DNA of 64,000 bases. It comes from Escherichia phage vB_EcoM_ESCO9. Of this stretch, positions 2,686-64,000 are shown one piece after another (the stretch's first letter is position 1; every line of letters begins with the position of its first letter). The position numbers were made by a program, and so were the translations under genes. The stretch lies in the sequence record OM386654.1; one strand, written 5' to 3'. The notes under the pieces are model-generated. The model worked only from the letters and a program-made list of their open reading frames with translations, had not been told where the DNA came from and did not search any database.

Positions 2686-5265
2686 ATGGGAGCTTTTACT
2701 TTCGACATTGAAAGTAACAACTTGCTTAATGACGAAAGTGTAGATTACTTGGCAAGTCCATATCGTTTAAAAGATAGTTTTGCAATGCACTGTATTGTGT
2801 GCGAAAGTCATGATACTGGAGAGATTATTGCTTTCCATGATGGTGATAAATATCTTTTCGATGGTCGTCCGTATATTGAGACTGACGGAAAGTATGAATA
2901 CCGACTGGAGGAATATGAGCATTTAGAATATACCCATTTCCCTCTTAAAGATTTTCCTGATTTTGTAAATGGAACAGGTAAATTTAAAGGTAATTCAAAC
3001 TATAAAATTACCAAAGTAGTTGGACATAACATCATTAACTTTGACTTACTGGCAATTAAATTATTTTTTAAACTCAACTACAGTATTAAGTACAATACTT
3101 GGGGTAATAGTAACATTGAAATTTGTGATACTATGATCTTAAGTAAGACACTAAACCCTGATCGCTTCGGTGGTCATAGTCTGGCAGAGTTATCTAAGAA
3201 AGCTGGAGGGGATGTTAAAATTGATTTTAGAAAAAACATCCCTGAAACTGAAAGATTTAAAACATTTGCAGCAGATATGCTGTATTACTGTATTTACGAT
3301 AACAAAGCTAACACCGCAGTGTTCCGTTATTTGATGGAAGAGTGGGGTGATTATAATAAGTGGTCTGAACCATTTAACTTAGAACAACGTGTAGCTGATA
3401 TTATTACACGTCAAGAGCACCGTGGCTTTGCTTTCAATATGAAGCAAGCAGAAGATAATATTCGTGATCTGGATGCTCGAATGGAAGCATGTCGTTTAGA
3501 GGCAGAACCTGTGCTACCTCCTAAACCTGCTACTAAAGGTTATTTGAAATCATTCATTCCACCTAAACTACAGTTTAAAAAGAATGGTGAACCTTCAAGT
3601 AACATGATAAAGTTTGCAGAGAAACATTCTGGTGAACTTGTACAAAAAGAAGATGGTTGGTGGTTATTTGCATTAGGTAAAGAGTTTAAACTGCCTATTC
3701 CAGCAGAAGAACCTATTTGTGATCCTACAGTACCTGCTACTTTAGACGACACTACACATATTAAAAATTGGTTAGTTGGTTTAGGTTGGAGTCCATCTGA
3801 ATATAAAGATAAAGATATCACTCTTAAATCTGGCACTAAGATTAAGAAAGATGAAGCACAAATGGAGAAAGCTATTCGTGACTATGTTGATCAAACATTA
3901 GCATCTAACTTCTGCCAGGATAGATGTGATCATCTGGAGTGCACACCAGAAACTTTGGAATGGAAACTAAGAGATCGTATTGCTAAAGCTAAAGGTCGTG
4001 GTGTTAAGGTGCTTACTAACCCTTCCTTTACAAAAGGGCAAGAGAAGGATATTTGTCCTAACTTGGAAGCACTAGGTGAAAAGTTTCCTTATGCTACGCA
4101 GATTGTGCAGTATCTTACGTATAAACATCGTAGAAACTCTATTCTAGGCGGTGGTGCTGATTGGGAAGAGGATGAAGAGGATTACGATAAAGGTTATCTG
4201 GCGGCAGTAAGGGCTGATGGTCGTATACCGACTCCTGCTGCAACGTGTGATGCAGCTACGTCTCGTATGAAACATAGGTTAGTAGCAAATATCCCACGTG
4301 TAACATCTCTGTACGGATATGAAATGCGTAACTTATTTGGTGTAGAAGTTCCAAAATACTTCCAAATTGGTTATGACTTTGATTCTCTTGAGGCAAAAAT
4401 AGAATCACACTACTGTTGGCGGTACGAGCAGGAACCACATGAATATTGTAATGCTCTATTATTGGAAAAACCTAATGATGTTCATACAATGATGGCTCGA
4501 CGTATTTCTGACACTATTGGTCGTAAGTTTGAACGAAGCCCTGCTAAATCTGTTAAGTATGGTATTACTTATGGTGCTCAAGCTGCAAAAGTAGCAAAAA
4601 CTATAGGTAGTGATATGTATACAGGACAGCTTGTATACGATGCTTTCTGGGAAGCTGCAAAACCTCTTGCGCTTCTTAAAGAACGTCTGCATGATTTTTG
4701 GGTTAAAACAGGTAAGAAATACATTCTTGGTATTGATGGTAGGAAAGTACCTACACGATCTGCACACGCAATACTTAACTCTCTGTTCCAGAGTGGTGGT
4801 GTTATTTGTGCAAAAAGAGCAATGGTTATCTACGACGATCTTATCGAAGAAGAAGGATTAGCTGTTGACTTTTTTGTTGATGACTGGAAAAATAAGTCAT
4901 TCGTTCAACAAATGATTGCATATCACGATGAAGCACAGCTTGAAGTAACTCGTGATCTGGTGCATTTTAAATGGTTCTCTAAAGAATCTTTAGGTTGGAC
5001 TCAAGTTGATGATCCAGAAGAACAAAAGAAAATTGATAAAGAATGTTTGGATAAGGTTAATGCCTGGAAAGAAGAGGAAGAGAAACGTACTGGCAAGATT
5101 TGGGCTAACGTACATGAATCTCCGAAAGGTGGTTGGTTTACAGCCTACAGTCGTGCTGGAGAATTAGCATCTATCGCTGTTAATAAAGCTGGTGAGTATT
5201 ACAATCTTAATGTACCTCTCACTGCTGGTTACGATGTTGGTAGTTCATGGTCAACTTGTCACTGA
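2686..5265 (+). CDS. DNA polymerase, family A (Pol I-like) with 3'-5' exonuclease domain
   Basis: 859 aa; exo motif VGHNIINFDL; motif B-like KSVKYGITYGAQ; motif C AYHDEAQLEV; RBS AAGGAGGGAG. Confidence 0.9.
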   Translation: MGAFTFDIESNNLLNDESVDYLASPYRLKDSFAMHCIVCESHDTGEIIAFHDGDKYLFDGRPYIETDGKYEYRLEEYEHLEYTHFPLKDFPDFVNGTGKFKGNSNYKITKVVGHNIINFDLLAIKLFFKLNYSIKYNTWGNSNIEICDTMILSKTLNPDRFGGHSLAELSKKAGGDVKIDFRKNIPETERFKTFAADMLYYCIYDNKANTAVFRYLMEEWGDYNKWSEPFNLEQRVADIITRQEHRGFAFNMKQAEDNIRDLDARMEACRLEAEPVLPPKPATKGYLKSFIPPKLQFKKNGEPSSNMIKFAEKHSGELVQKEDGWWLFALGKEFKLPIPAEEPICDPTVPATLDDTTHIKNWLVGLGWSPSEYKDKDITLKSGTKIKKDEAQMEKAIRDYVDQTLASNFCQDRCDHLECTPETLEWKLRDRIAKAKGRGVKVLTNPSFTKGQEKDICPNLEALGEKFPYATQIVQYLTYKHRRNSILGGGADWEEDEEDYDKGYLAAVRADGRIPTPAATCDAATSRMKHRLVANIPRVTSLYGYEMRNLFGVEVPKYFQIGYDFDSLEAKIESHYCWRYEQEPHEYCNALLLEKPNDVHTMMARRISDTIGRKFERSPAKSVKYGITYGAQAAKVAKTIGSDMYTGQLVYDAFWEAAKPLALLKERLHDFWVKTGKKYILGIDGRKVPTRSAHAILNSLFQSGGVICAKRAMVIYDDLIEEEGLAVDFFVDDWKNKSFVQQMIAYHDEAQLEVTRDLVHFKWFSKESLGWTQVDDPEEQKKIDKECLDKVNAWKEEEEKRTGKIWANVHESPKGGWFTAYSRAGELASIAVNKAGEYYNLNVPLTAGYDVGSSWSTCH

Positions 5266-5292
5266 CATCTCTTTGATTTTAAAGGAGTTTTT

Positions 5293-5889
5293 ATGCTTAC
5301 CGTATATGGTGAAGGTATTAATGATTTGGAAGGCGAGAGTACGCTACCTGGTAGTAAGAAACTAACGCCGCATTATATGAAATGGATGGCTATGTTGGGG
5401 AGGTGTTACTCCCCTTGTCAACAAGAACGTGATCCTTGTTATAATGGGGTGACGGTTTGTGAAGAATGGAAACTGTTCTCCAATTTCTACTCTTGGTTGC
5501 AAACTTGGGATAACTGGGAAAACTTAGAACTTGATAAAGATATTATAGGAGGGAGAGTTTACTCTCCCGATACCTGTCTTTTAGTAACAGGAGATCTTAA
5601 CAAGTTCTTAGCTTATAGAGTAAGTAAAAGATCTCATGGGACTATGGTAGGATGTAGTTACGAAAAAGATCGTAAAAAGTATAAAGCCCATATTCAACGT
5701 GATGGACGTGTTATAACACTGGGACGTTTTAATACTGAAATTGAAGCGCATCTTTGTTGGTTGAAGGCTAAGGCAGAACAGCTTACAAAATTCTTTGAAA
5801 CTGAAGATGAAAGAGTTGTTCCACATCTTAAAGCACTATATAATGAAATGCTTGAGCATGTAGAACAACACAAAGAGTGGACACGATAG
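5293..5889 (+). CDS. AP2-domain DNA-binding protein, possible homing-endonuclease-like gene
   Basis: C-terminal YKAHIQRDGRVITLGRFNTEIEAHLCW resembles the AP2 DNA-binding domain found in phage homing endonucleases; no catalytic motif identified by eye. Confidence 0.4.
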   Translation: MLTVYGEGINDLEGESTLPGSKKLTPHYMKWMAMLGRCYSPCQQERDPCYNGVTVCEEWKLFSNFYSWLQTWDNWENLELDKDIIGGRVYSPDTCLLVTGDLNKFLAYRVSKRSHGTMVGCSYEKDRKKYKAHIQRDGRVITLGRFNTEIEAHLCWLKAKAEQLTKFFETEDERVVPHLKALYNEMLEHVEQHKEWTR

Positions 5890-5897
5890 GAGAAAAT

Positions 5898-6491
5898 ATG
5901 AATATTGAAGATCAAAAAGTACGAGCTTTAGAAGTATTACGTATGTGCCAACTGGTAGATCCGTTTGCAATTGTAGCTGGCGGCGCTGTACGTGACTGGC
6001 GATTAGAGAAACCTGCGCAAGATATTGACATTTACTTGCGTATGCCTAACCACAATACACTCGTGCTAGTAGAGAAGTTTTTGATGTTGGGTGTTGGTGC
6101 ACGTAATGTTAAACAACTTACTAAGCAAACAGAACACACTTATGCCGAACTACCACATTTGAAATGGGTATTTGAAGCATACTATAAAGACCTTAAGTTT
6201 AACTTTATGATCATGGAAGAAGGTGTACGCAGTGAAATCGTATGGAACTTTGATGTAGCTATTTGCCTGTGTTACTGGGATGGTCAAAATTATGTATATC
6301 ATCCAGATTTTGAATTTGCACTGAAAACTAATATTTGTACTATTAATCACCGCTACACAGGTAAAGAAGCACACGTCCGTAAAATGGCAGAACGTTTCCC
6401 TATGTTCCGCTTTGTAAAAGACGTTTTCATTCCCAAAGAACCAGAAGTACGTACACTGGATTCATTTAACAACGAAGAATTTAAGATTTAA
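5898..6491 (+). CDS. hypothetical protein
   Basis: ATG at 5898 preceded by AGGAG; track start at 5877 has no RBS and overlaps the upstream gene. Confidence 0.5.
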   Translation: MNIEDQKVRALEVLRMCQLVDPFAIVAGGAVRDWRLEKPAQDIDIYLRMPNHNTLVLVEKFLMLGVGARNVKQLTKQTEHTYAELPHLKWVFEAYYKDLKFNFMIMEEGVRSEIVWNFDVAICLCYWDGQNYVYHPDFEFALKTNICTINHRYTGKEAHVRKMAERFPMFRFVKDVFIPKEPEVRTLDSFNNEEFKI

Positions 6492-6494
6492 GTG

Positions 6495-6524
6495 TTGACA
6501 AACATTATAATTATGTGTTATTAT
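6495..6524 (+). promoter_or_regulatory. sigma70-like promoter (-35 TTGACA, -10 TATTAT)
   Basis: TTGACA at 6495-6500, 18-nt spacer, TATTAT at 6519-6524 preceded by TGTG; 10 nt upstream of the ATG at 6535. Confidence 0.4.
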
Positions 6525-6534
6525 TAGGACTTGA

Positions 6535-6933
6535 ATGACAGATAATCGTTCTAAAATCTTAGTCGAGACGTTCTACAGTAGAGAAACTAATCGTCTTGAG
6601 CTAACTAAAAAAGATGTTGAACCTCAAGATAATACCTTTTTTATTCAAATACTATGTCTCTTTGGTGGATACAATCGTTTAACAGTGAGAGTAGAAAACA
6701 AAGAGATATCTGAAACCACTATCACAAAACGTGAACTAATGCTACTACAGGATACAATACGAGATGTTTTGGATAATCCTGGAAAAGCAAAAGTAATTAA
6801 CCTTGGTGGAGAAAAGATACAAATCCTCCATTTCGAAAGTGGTGAAATAGGATTTGGTATTGGTCTTGGTAAATACCTGTTGGAAGAAACTGACGCTACT
6901 CTTTTACGAGAGTTTTGTGTTAAAGTAATGTAA
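6535..6933 (+). CDS. hypothetical protein (132 aa)
   Basis: ORF track; promoter-like element immediately upstream. Confidence 0.5.
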   Translation: MTDNRSKILVETFYSRETNRLELTKKDVEPQDNTFFIQILCLFGGYNRLTVRVENKEISETTITKRELMLLQDTIRDVLDNPGKAKVINLGGEKIQILHFESGEIGFGIGLGKYLLEETDATLLREFCVKVM

Positions 6934-6949
6934 TTATAGAGGAGAATTT

Positions 6950-7897
6950 ATGCCAGTAATTAATTCTGAAATCGATCGTCGTACTAAAAAAGAAGCATTC
7001 TGGGCTGAAGGTATCGTTGAATATGTCAAACTAGATAAGTTTGATGAAATGAAAGTCTCTTATATTAAGGTTGCAGGTCAGCCAGATAAGAAAATTGAAT
7101 CAACTCACAAAGCATCCCTGCTTATTAAAGAGAAAGGTGCTGGTGCTGATGATAAAGGTGTTTGGGTTAGCCTAGGTGAAGTTAAACTGCACCCAGAACA
7201 TGAAAACCTGCAAGTTAAAGATGGTGATAAGTGGATTACTATCGAAAAAGGTGTAGAAGTAACTATGGATGTTAAACCTTCCGAATGGAATGGCAAAACA
7301 TACTACAACTCCTCTAAAGGTAAAATCACTGTTCTTTCAACAGAAGGTGTTCAGCAAGCACAATCTTCTTCAAAAGGTGGAAATAAGCCATCTAATAACG
7401 AAGGTAGCAAGCCTAACTACAAAAAACGTGATACCGTAGGGATTGAAACAGGACACGCTGTAAACGGCGCTCTGGAGCTTCTACGTGCTGGTGTGAAAGG
7501 TGATGCTTTCGACTTGGCTGGTGTGGTACAATCTGCAACTGTTAATCTGAAAGCAGAAATTGCTAAAGATCGTGGCGTTGATGTGACTGACTATGATCTT
7601 GGTGCTTCAGTTGGACACGCAATTCTTAACGCTTGTCGTGATCATACAGGTAAAACTGTAACGGCAGAAGAGATTATTGAAGCTGCTCGTGAAGTTCTTG
7701 CTTTGTCTGATAAAGTAGCTGCTGCTATCCGTGGAATGTCTACCCCAGTACAAGAAGTTAAGAAAGAAACTAAAAAAGTAGAGAAAAAAGAGCCAGCACC
7801 GAAAGAACCAGAACCTGTTGTTCAAGATTTCGATGATGATATCCCATTTGCTCCTATTGGTTTGCAGTATGGTCGAAATTTCCTGCACTGTTTCTAA
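6950..7897 (+). CDS. single-stranded DNA-binding protein-like
   Basis: Contains DFDDDIPF, identical to the acidic C-terminal tip of bacterial SSB, followed by 15 extra residues; Gly/Ser/Asn-rich linker; high-expression-like codon usage; RBS AGGAG. Confidence 0.5.
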   Translation: MPVINSEIDRRTKKEAFWAEGIVEYVKLDKFDEMKVSYIKVAGQPDKKIESTHKASLLIKEKGAGADDKGVWVSLGEVKLHPEHENLQVKDGDKWITIEKGVEVTMDVKPSEWNGKTYYNSSKGKITVLSTEGVQQAQSSSKGGNKPSNNEGSKPNYKKRDTVGIETGHAVNGALELLRAGVKGDAFDLAGVVQSATVNLKAEIAKDRGVDVTDYDLGASVGHAILNACRDHTGKTVTAEEIIEAAREVLALSDKVAAAIRGMSTPVQEVKKETKKVEKKEPAPKEPEPVVQDFDDDIPFAPIGLQYGRNFLHCF

Positions 7898-52985: not shown

Positions 52986-53221
52986 AAAAAGAAATTTTAA
53001 CTGATGTAACATATTCTTGTATTAGCAAAGGCGGTTTATATCGTGTAGTTGGCTTTCCTAAACCAGCGGGTGTATCTAAAGTATTTGATCCTGTTGTGAT
53101 CTACGAAGATGTAAGGACTGGTCAACAGTATTGGCGATTCCAGCAAGATTTCTTACACCGCATGGAGGTTGTTGATGGCGAAAACACCGAAGAAGCGATC
53201 CGTAACAAAGCACGCATCTAA
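52982..53221 (+). CDS. hypothetical protein (79 aa)
   Basis: ORF track; ATGA overlap with upstream gene. Confidence 0.45.
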   Translation: MKKEILTDVTYSCISKGGLYRVVGFPKPAGVSKVFDPVVIYEDVRTGQQYWRFQQDFLHRMEVVDGENTEEAIRNKARI

Positions 53222-53510
53222 AGATGGGGCGGCAAAGACCGCTCCTAAGAAACAAAAATTTGACACAGAGGCTTTTGTCTTTGATACTCCAATAGAGAAG
53301 ATAGAAGAAGCTCTTGCTAGATTTGAAGAACGTGAAGCAGATCCTATGGCAGATCCTTTCACAGAAGATGAATTGTATTGGTTTGGCTGGTGGGTTTTGA
53401 ATCTACCAGAAGCTAAAAAACGAGGAATGAAGTTAGTTCCTATCTGTGCAAAAGAGTCTGCTGTGTTAGGTTTATACGAGAAGCCTAAAAGAAGGAGCAA
53501 AAAGAAATGA
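53175..53510 (+). CDS. hypothetical basic protein (Lys-rich termini)
   Basis: ATG at 53175 preceded by GGAGG. Confidence 0.45.
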   Translation: MAKTPKKRSVTKHASKDGAAKTAPKKQKFDTEAFVFDTPIEKIEEALARFEEREADPMADPFTEDELYWFGWWVLNLPEAKKRGMKLVPICAKESAVLGLYEKPKRRSKKK

Positions 53511-63088: not shown

Positions 63089-63116
63089 TAAAAAGGGGCG
63101 AAAGCCCCTTTATTTT
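63088..63116 (+). terminator. rho-independent terminator (AAGGGGC-GAAA-GCCCCTT + T-run)
   Basis: Hairpin at 63093-63110 followed by TATTTTT. Confidence 0.5.
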
Positions 63117-63126
63117 TGGAGGATTT

Positions 63127-63528
63127 ATGACTACAGCACTGGATATTCAAATTGATGGTGATCACTACAAACGTATGCGTATGCAACCTTTGGAACTTGC
63201 ATATCTAATTGGTGCAACTCCTTGTTTCACTAAGTTAGCTAAGTATGCTTGTCGAAACAAAGGTGATCGTGTGATCAACCTAAACAAAGCGATTCACGTT
63301 ATTCATATTGAAAAAGAATTGAGTGATAAATATTACAATATGTTGTATGAAGCCTACCCTAACTTAAAAAATCCTGTAAAAATTGAGTTAGCTAATCAGC
63401 TAATTGATTTATACACAGACGATGATCTTGTTCGTAAGGCTTTAAAAGCAATGTATAAAGGTAAGTATATTGAAGCAGCAGATGCTATTGAACAATTGAA
63501 GGAGAGTGTAGATGGCTTCTCACGGTAA
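63127..63528 (+). CDS. hypothetical protein (133 aa)
   Basis: ORF track; RBS GGAGG. Confidence 0.5.
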   Translation: MTTALDIQIDGDHYKRMRMQPLELAYLIGATPCFTKLAKYACRNKGDRVINLNKAIHVIHIEKELSDKYYNMLYEAYPNLKNPVKIELANQLIDLYTDDDLVRKALKAMYKGKYIEAADAIEQLKESVDGFSR

Positions 63529-63706
63529 ACAATACGGAGAGGGTGAAGTATATAAAATATACAATAAACGTGGAGATAAACTCCTATATACAATCACAAT
63601 CCCAGAAAACATGTGTAAGGCTGGTTTAGACCGTATGCTTTTCTTTAAATATAACATTCCACCTGGAGATTATGTAGCTAAAAAGGTGAGCACTATTGGA
63701 AAATAA
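63512..63706 (+). CDS. hypothetical protein (64 aa)
   Basis: ORF track; overlaps upstream gene end. Confidence 0.4.
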   Translation: MASHGKQYGEGEVYKIYNKRGDKLLYTITIPENMCKAGLDRMLFFKYNIPPGDYVAKKVSTIGK

Positions 63707-64000
63707 AGAACCTAAAGTTATTTGGGGAGATGGAACACCTTGGAAAACTCAAGCAGCCTTTTATACATATTTAAGGGGTTGCTTAAGGAAAGCATGGGTG
63801 AGACACCCGAATAAGATAAAAAAGATCCAATCTGTACGATTTAAAGCCGATAGGTTGGATAAAGATGGCAATGTAGTTTTAGATAAGAAAACAGGCAAAC
63901 CGAAACAGGTTTGGAATTGTCAATGTGAATTGTGTGGACATACAGGAGGTATGAAAGACTTTCAAGTAGACCATATTAATGCAGCAGGTACATTAACCTG
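63696..64000 (+). CDS. HNH endonuclease-like protein, 5' part only (runs off window end)
   Basis: Frame open from TTG at 63696 to the window end; CQCELCGHTGGMKDFQVDHINA resembles an HNH Cys/His motif. Confidence 0.45.
   Translation, partial: MENKEPKVIWGDGTPWKTQAAFYTYLRGCLRKAWVRHPNKIKKIQSVRFKADRLDKDGNVVLDKKTGKPKQVWNCQCELCGHTGGMKDFQVDHINAAGTLT

Follow-up and report, generated by a model that had tools for sequence, protein, structure and literature searches.

When a small gene lies wedged behind the DNA polymerase gene of a phage, is it a selfish insertion or a resident gene? We address this question for an open reading frame (ORF) at positions 5293–5889 of a 64,000-nt stretch of phage DNA (the window). 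A sequence-only reading had described it as an AP2-domain gene and a free-standing homing endonuclease insertion, and had pointed to a second, partial HNH-like gene at the end of the window.

The window comes from a phi92-like E. coli myophage (Justusliebigvirus). In megablast searches, window positions 4300–7000 matched 124 phage records, the best being Escherichia phage VEcB (Justusliebigvirus, Stephanstirmvirinae; 99.5% identity), with alia, ESCO8 and further phi92-like myophages ranking next. Against phage muut, positions 63100–64000 show 100% identity; against VEcB the value is only 98.3%. Since the right end is closest to muut and the polymerase locus is closest to VEcB, the source genome is a recombinant mosaic of known lineages. 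At the polymerase locus itself, muut carries a deletion allele, though it is identical to the window's right end. GenBank records MG065639, MG065645, MG065656 and MG065689 bear the names 'Campylobacter phage A150/A145/C3/A110a', with C. jejuni as host, and share 96–99.6% identity with these phi92-like coliphages; they look like mislabelled or contaminant genomes.

As the sequence-only reading stated, an ORF of 198 aa, running from ATG to TAG on the + strand, lies directly downstream of the DNA polymerase gene, 27 nt after its stop codon; 8 nt separate its end from the next gene (Table 1). That reading saw no strong ribosome-binding site, but there is an AAGGAG followed by five T's and the ATG, a spacing of 5 nt. 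The downstream neighbor, described earlier as the next replication gene, encodes a nucleotidyltransferase and is not clearly a replication gene. A consensus scan of 4800–6600 gave no surplus of promoter-like sites over shuffled sequences and no terminator. With no separate promoter or terminator signal in this interval, the gene is probably transcribed with its neighbors as part of one transcription unit. The possibility of a chance ORF is ruled out by homologs, a signal of selection and the ribosome-binding site; this is a real, expressed-looking gene that is free-standing, adjoins the DNA polymerase gene and has its own ribosome-binding site.

Table 1. Coordinates of the features discussed, numbered from the first letter of the window
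Feature	Positions	Strand	Evidence or remark
Family-A DNA polymerase gene, 859 aa, upstream neighbor	2686–5265	+	Pfam DNA_pol_A E 4.5e-13; PHROG 17 E 3.8e-111
Ribosome-binding site AAGGAG	5282–5287	+	Read directly; kept in 7/7 aligned relatives, deletion alleles too
IPA-HNH-type homing-endonuclease-like gene, 198 aa	5293–5889	+	PHROG 953; tblastn to ICP1 ORF; dN/dS 0.12–0.30
Segment absent from phage outra: 448-bp internal deletion at AAA microhomology	5383–5830	+	Rest 99.5% identical
Predicted variant beta-beta-alpha-metal (His-Me-like) motif without His, residues 78–106	5524–5610	+	AlphaFold secondary structure; invariance; gp086 mapping
AP2-type DNA-binding domain, residues 117–165, three strands and a helix	5641–5787	+	Family profile vs PDB; Foldseek; 8/52 members match PF00847
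TAGGAG, stop of the 198-aa gene overlapping the next gene's ribosome-binding site	5887–5892	+	Cross-genus similarity stops here
Nucleotidyltransferase gene, downstream neighbor	5898–6491	+	PHROG 1614 E 2e-34; Pfam PolyA_pol E 0.0017
First 101 codons of HNH-like gene, ortholog of VEcB gp076 / phi92 gp081	63696–64000	+	PHROG 1985; identity to gp076

The polymerase gene of the window (2580 nt) lacks a 735-nt intein whose insertion point is at ~4417. The intein is present at that point in phi92, PaulScherrer, SD2, PD06 and others, where the match to the window splits into two pieces, and the polymerases that bear it are annotated 'intein-containing DNA polymerase precursor'. The intein accounts for a second polymorphism of a selfish element, also in this gene.

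Two domains and the position of a missing histidine

An AP2-type segment had been noticed in the protein from its sequence, and this assignment of the C-terminal half is sound, although the signal is weak in the window copy. Pfam AP2 does not match the 198-aa protein itself even at E ≤ 1, and a phmmer search with the protein against PDB sequences returned only a spurious 23-residue match. However, PF00847 (AP2) is matched by 8 of 52 aligned family members (best 1.6e-5), and a family profile run against PDB sequences found AP2/ERF chains only (WRI1, 7e-5; ERF096, 0.006; AtERF1, 0.025; TEM1, 0.06). In the AlphaFold model of the protein (pLDDT 91.9), residues 121–164 form three strands and a helix. 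When the full model was submitted to Foldseek, the AP2 domain was the only one returned, with TEM1, WRI1 and PfAP2 at the top, and WRI1 superposed on the model with an rmsd of 1.2 Å over 46 columns.

What, then, is the N-terminal half? The catalytic domain expected of a homing endonuclease, HNH or GIY-YIG, was not recovered in canonical form. Pfam and NCBIfam gave no nuclease domain for the 198-aa protein, and a DIX match at E 0.053 is noise. Comparison of the family alignment with a 48-member I-HmuI/HNH_3 alignment using hhalign yielded a probability of 1% on a spurious 19-column match, and thus no direct profile-profile support for an HNH relationship. An I-HmuI HMM run against family members with hmmsearch found nothing except gp086, a paralog encoded by VEcB. 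Foldseek with the N-terminal domain alone returned nothing significant, but the non-significant list consists mostly of His-Me nucleases: PacI is first (3ldy; TM 0.42 on the query, E 1.3, probability 0.18), and pyocin AP41, colicin E9 and the Gme HNH nickase are also present. The domain is only distantly related to HNH nucleases.

The paralog gp086 provides the bridge. It matches the 198-aa protein in blastp (6e-10, 30% identity over 124 aa) and an I-HmuI-family HMM at a conditional E of 3.5e-5, and through it D81, K82 and N103 map onto D74, H75 and N96 of I-HmuI with an identical 22-residue spacing between Asp and Asn. In I-HmuI, D74 and N96 reportedly hold the metal, and H75 is said to be the general base. 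The AlphaFold model (pLDDT >90) places a strand at residues 78–81, a loop, a second strand at 96–99 and a helix at 100–106, all preceded by helices. The signature of this domain reads D81-K82-D83 ... Y90-S91-P92 ... C95 ... N103.

The signature is strictly kept. We aligned 148 of the best 150 cluster representatives, all less than 50% identical to one another, of which 146 align at the motif columns. R37, Y50, W59, F65, W68, D81, K82, D83, C95 and N103 are invariant in all 146, and Y90 is kept in 145. Invariant D81 and N103 thus occupy the metal-ligand positions, and the position of the catalytic His is Lys82 in 146/146; no conserved His occurs anywhere in residues 74–107 of these representatives. 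In the model and the alignment, therefore, fold and metal ligands look His-Me-like, with the catalytic His replaced by Lys. With this arrangement invariant in the aligned representatives, the motif is not a product of decay.

Known systems help to place the protein. With the canonical HNH_3 plus AP2 homing endonucleases (His-Me group 2, to which I-HmuI, PDB 1u3e, belongs) it has in common a beta-beta-alpha arrangement, predicted in its case, the Asp-Asn spacing and an AP2 module that recognizes DNA. It differs in having Lys82 for His75 and Tyr90 for Asn83, and in lacking a NUMOD4-type N terminus; the protein is silent in Pfam HNH_3, and its family is negative in hhalign. With PacI (His-Me group 20), its best though weak structural match, it shares a beta-beta-alpha-metal motif without His, predicted for the 198-aa protein, and a loop Tyr, which is catalytic in PacI, but the two have no detectable sequence similarity and PacI has no AP2 domain. 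PacI also has a Cys4 site. Since C56 (partly) and C95 are the only cysteines conserved in the family, there is no Cys4 site of the PacI kind. A further comparison is gp086 ('LDRID' ... 'NCRW' plus AP2), a distant paralog with the same motif order, the AP2 tail and the Tyr conserved. At the His position gp086 has Arg where the 198-aa protein has Lys; unlike the 198-aa protein, it carries an extra N-terminal Cys-rich segment and its gene adjoins a DNA ligase gene.

VEcB (NC_052663) carries two more genes annotated 'HNH endonuclease': gp086 (40297–40926) and gp247 (53110–53469), the latter inside a tRNA cluster. Neither has a counterpart in the window by tblastn, where gp086 matches only the 5293–5889 ORF (30% identity). 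These genes are further presence/absence differences between phages that are 98–99% identical.

The family itself is large. The 198-aa protein matches PHROG 953 ('HNH endonuclease') at E 8.5e-74, and further PHROGs match its N-terminal or its C-terminal half. A word-indexed search found 103 homologs, and a profile run against 1.84 billion cluster representatives retrieved 6192 at E ≤ 1e-30. Matches occur in 1467 phage records, in up to 6 copies per genome and in varied contexts. Among these records are ICP1 and the Barba phages, which define the group called IPA-HNH, and the identical gene in VEcB is annotated 'HNH endonuclease' (RefSeq). By tblastn against ICP1 records, the protein is 32.6% identical over 85% of the query (E 7e-16 to 1e-15) to a 210-aa ORF (TUST1-2_01050), which itself has a weak AP2 match. 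Two PADLOC matches, the only ones, at E ~0.006–0.009 fall on the C-terminal helices, and we take them as noise.

IPA-HNH homing endonuclease genes (HEGs) were defined from gp59, gp115-116 and gp209 of ICP1; their N-terminal HNH domain is too divergent for Pfam HNH_3 but is seen by HHsearch, and their C terminus is AP2 (Barth, Dunham & Seed 2023, PMC10448857). That census counted 431 such genes in 240 phages, with the family abundant in Barba phages and Flaumdraviruses; DNA polymerase genes are the most frequent neighbors, with 29% of the IPA-HNH genes near them (PMC10448857). On homology and domain order, the gene belongs to this published family of putative free-standing HEGs. Like the IPA-HNH HEGs of ICP1, it encodes ~200 aa with a Pfam-silent N terminus and a C-terminal AP2 domain, is free-standing and sits where these genes often do, beside a polymerase gene; unlike them, it differs from the ICP1 copy at all but ~33% of positions. 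It is thus an ordinary addition to a family of selfish phage genes that has already been described. The supplementary tables of Barth et al. name no phi92-like phage and no member of the Stephanstirmvirinae, we looked there for biochemical assays of IPA-HNH proteins and found none, and the paper does not address the change of His to Lys (PMC10448857).

Loss, selection and exchange among relatives

Is the gene present wherever its flanks are? We compared 55 close relatives, defined as records with flanks ~94–99% identical. The gene is intact in 27; another 27, including phi92, muut, Nernie and Paula, share a 496-bp deletion, and one, outra, has a separate deletion of 448 bp (Table 1). The 496-bp deletion is old and that of outra is recent. 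The phi92-type allele keeps the ribosome-binding site, the ATG and ~85–100 bp of the gene's 3′ end, a remnant that is ~76% identical and contains a frameshift and stop codons. Since the gene-less alleles retain a ribosome-binding site, an ATG and a decayed 3′ remnant, they are losses and not naive target sites. We saw no naive empty target site among them; every gene-less allele seen was a deletion derivative. Synteny with relatives lacking the insert, which the sequence-only reading had proposed as a check, therefore bears out variable presence, but the 'insert-free' alleles are deletion remnants that document loss and not gain. The same reading had named, as grounds for giving up its view, a gene conserved at this position in all relatives and without an endonuclease domain. 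The locus approaches that description but departs from it, the gene having been lost from half of the close relatives.

The deletion alleles (muut L001 2490–2602; phi92 L002 ~3226–3338), with their strong ribosome-binding site and ATG, could translate a 19-codon remnant, MWNNLLLPRLFRTFKPFHN. Some records have a 'hypothetical protein' annotated there.

Beyond the genus, the same slot behind the polymerase gene is occupied in Phapecoctavirus (nieznany, iGC_PHA_EC001 and phiWec186) and in Klebsiella phage KP2025. The Phapecoctavirus genomes have three small ORFs (~55–72 aa) that separate the endonuclease-like gene from the nucleotidyltransferase gene (nieznany L005 4017–4607, with equivalents in L011 and L012). 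Justusliebigvirus lacks those three ORFs, and similarity between the genera ends exactly at that junction.

Differences at the polymerase end do not sort with presence of the gene: phi92, which has the deletion, is like the window, and PaulScherrer, which has the intact gene, is like muut. For this reason a target site cannot be inferred from these polymorphisms.

Where the gene is intact, it is under constraint. Its dN/dS against diverged intact copies (Nei-Gojobori) is in the range given in Table 1, which argues that the 198-aa protein is maintained by purifying selection. Its history differs from that of its flanks, and in opposite directions at two scales. Against Phapecoctavirus phages phiWec186 and iGC, the gene has a dS of 0.57–0.61, and in the same comparisons the last 900 nt of the polymerase gene have a dS of 1.3–3.1, which is saturated; the downstream nucleotidyltransferase proteins of the two genera are only 35% identical. 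In sliding windows across the two genera, no stretch is better conserved than the gene, and precisely at its stop codon the similarity drops away. Between genera, then, the gene is younger than its flanks. Within the genus, PaulScherrer shows the reverse, with a dS of 0.28 for the gene vs 0.07–0.10 for the flanks. The flanks of PaulScherrer stand at 97–100% identity, which falls to 60–80% over 5200–5350 and to 83–87% around 5650–5700.

PaulScherrer and nieznany, which belong to different genera, have a variant of the polymerase end and gene start in common: the last polymerase codons travel together with 5′-end variants of the endonuclease-like gene. Yet another 5′ segment is found in records such as ECGD1. 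Such discordance between gene and flanks would be expected if a gene cassette were exchanged laterally; the gene is mosaic and has been exchanged in this way. It marks a recombination boundary beside the polymerase gene. In this it resembles other IPA-HNH HEGs, and it agrees with what Barth et al. announce in their title, namely that nuclease genes lie at boundaries of genetic exchange (PMC10448857).

Homing, repression or decay

How are these observations best explained? The gene is probably a selfish, homing-endonuclease-like gene of the IPA-HNH type in the spacer between the polymerase and nucleotidyltransferase genes. We infer DNA cleavage, a target site and active homing. In the mechanism that we envision, the C-terminal AP2 domain would bind a specific site near the polymerase/nucleotidyltransferase junction of a co-infecting relative that lacks an intact copy, and the N-terminal beta-beta-alpha-metal-like domain would nick or cut nearby. 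Recombinational repair from the gene-bearing genome would then copy the gene together with adjacent markers. The active site would be non-canonical, with Lys82 in the place of the general-base His, Asp81 and Asn103 as metal ligands, and the loop residue Tyr90 where the His-less HNH enzyme PacI has its catalytic Tyr. Small genes wedged between essential genes, with variable presence and local mosaicism, are also characteristic of the free-standing homing endonucleases of T4, Seg and Mob (PMC10448857). The gene is like these in all three respects, but Seg and Mob have GIY-YIG or canonical HNH domains and their cleavage has been shown experimentally.

Thus, the earlier view of the polymerase-adjacent gene as a homing endonuclease insertion was right in kind: the two-domain layout, IPA-HNH membership, variable presence and mosaicism agree with it, but the canonical HNH or GIY-YIG domain it implied is absent. 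Several observations weigh against this view. The catalytic His is missing, Pfam and NCBIfam find no nuclease domain, hhalign and Foldseek give no significant match for the N-terminal domain, and the polymerase-end polymorphisms point to no target site. The same position in three lineages would also fit an old resident gene, and we saw no case in which homing had brought the gene into a naive site, all empty alleles being deletions.

One alternative is that the protein has been domesticated and, nuclease-dead, binds DNA sequence-specifically to control transcription or replication in the phage, a competitor or the host. The general-base His is missing, and His-Me groups lacking both the His and a substitute Tyr, such as Smad MH1 and Enpp, have lost catalysis and are inactive DNA binders (PMC5714182). 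There are also parallels in PLE CapR, in the CapR+AP2 'CasPR' anti-CRISPR repressors and in Smad MH1, a His-Me finger. Phage AP2 proteins are known to act as repressors: those joining CapR to AP2 are transcriptional silencers of cas genes (2026 preprint, 10.64898/2026.02.23.707548), a function that keeps alive the reading of our protein as a DNA binder only. A fixed position behind the polymerase gene in three lineages, in a string with replication genes, and a low dN/dS would suit a domesticated gene. However, the gene is deleted in half of the close relatives, all of them viable isolates, and its family is multi-copy and scattered over many contexts, as selfish genes are. The strictest conservation falls on the beta-beta-alpha motif (D-K-D, Y-S-P, C, N) and not on AP2, and the loop Tyr is present, unlike in Smad MH1. 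The CapR/CasPR repressors are likewise phage-borne AP2 proteins related to homing endonuclease modules, but they have a CapR zinc finger in place of the nuclease-like domain; Pfam CapR does not match the 198-aa protein and matches 1 of 52 aligned relatives. On balance, we regard domestication as unlikely.

A more specific proposal is a sub-case of homing with a defined chemistry, in which the protein is an active His-less nuclease of the PacI type and Tyr90 (or Lys82) replaces His, the Tyr possibly acting as a direct nucleophile. PacI itself lacks the His, and a Tyr in its inter-strand loop takes over (PMC5714182). Among structural matches to the N-terminal model PacI ranks first, and Y90, where the I-HmuI family has Asn, is retained in the paralog gp086 as well as in nearly all representatives. 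This strict conservation of the loop Tyr, together with PacI as top structural neighbor, suggests by analogy that the family could be a PacI-like active enzyme. Nevertheless, the Foldseek match is not significant, and the family profile did not retrieve PacI from PDB sequences at E ≤ 10. We consider this particular chemistry rather improbable.

Could the gene instead be what is left of a former homing endonuclease gene, now decaying and without function? Two independent deletions have occurred in relatives, the older one with stop codons. Yet 27 close records and other genera keep the frame open, dN/dS stays at 0.12–0.30, and all family-invariant residues are present. We disfavor decay as a description of the window copy and consider it very improbable.

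The homing reading that we prefer leaves room for a wider proposal about the IPA-HNH family (>6000 clusters), with its invariant D-K-D ... Y-S-P ... C ... N and no catalytic His. We put it forward tentatively and with more doubt than conviction: its members may be nucleases of unusual chemistry, using the loop Tyr or the Lys and perhaps a covalent protein-DNA intermediate, or they may be non-nuclease, sequence-specific DNA binders that are still mobile and mark boundaries. If the proposal is true, either outcome would revise the reading of thousands of phage genes annotated 'HNH endonuclease'.

The value of the present assignment is mainly one of annotation, as a gene variously called 'HNH endonuclease', 'AP2 domain-containing protein' or 'hypothetical protein' can be placed in the class of putative IPA-HNH HEGs. 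It is also of some interest that, in the aligned sequences, the 'HNH' domain of this family has no histidine, its nuclease activity being presumed. Phi92-like phages, in which the gene marks a recombination boundary, are used in phage-therapy collections. Intact, recently deleted and anciently deleted alleles in near-isogenic, culturable coliphages form a convenient natural set for testing directly whether the gene homes and what its His-less active site does.

The partial gene at the end of the window

The second endonuclease-like gene, with an HNH-type Cys/His motif, had been reported to begin at 63696 and run off the window, and it is real. It has a TTG start and 305 bp within the window. 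The encoded segment shares 98% identity with residues 1–101 of VEcB gp076, a 191-aa protein with the annotation HNH endonuclease. It has a CxxC...DH...CxxC-N arrangement and a match to PHROG 1985 (E 6.5e-28). The full-length ortholog has sub-threshold Pfam matches only, all to His-Me families (HNH, 0.013; HNH_5, 0.016; Endonuclease_7, 0.038).

That this gene is also a selfish insertion, as the sequence-only reading supposed, finds no support. Positions 63100–64000, which include the first 305 bp of the gene, are fully covered at 98–100% identity in 55/55 close relatives, and this comparison, which concerns the start region, thus gives no evidence of a mobile insertion. The TTG start overlaps the end of an upstream 64-aa ORF (63512–63706) by 11 nt, an arrangement found in 55/55 relatives, and the overlap suggests translational coupling of the two genes.
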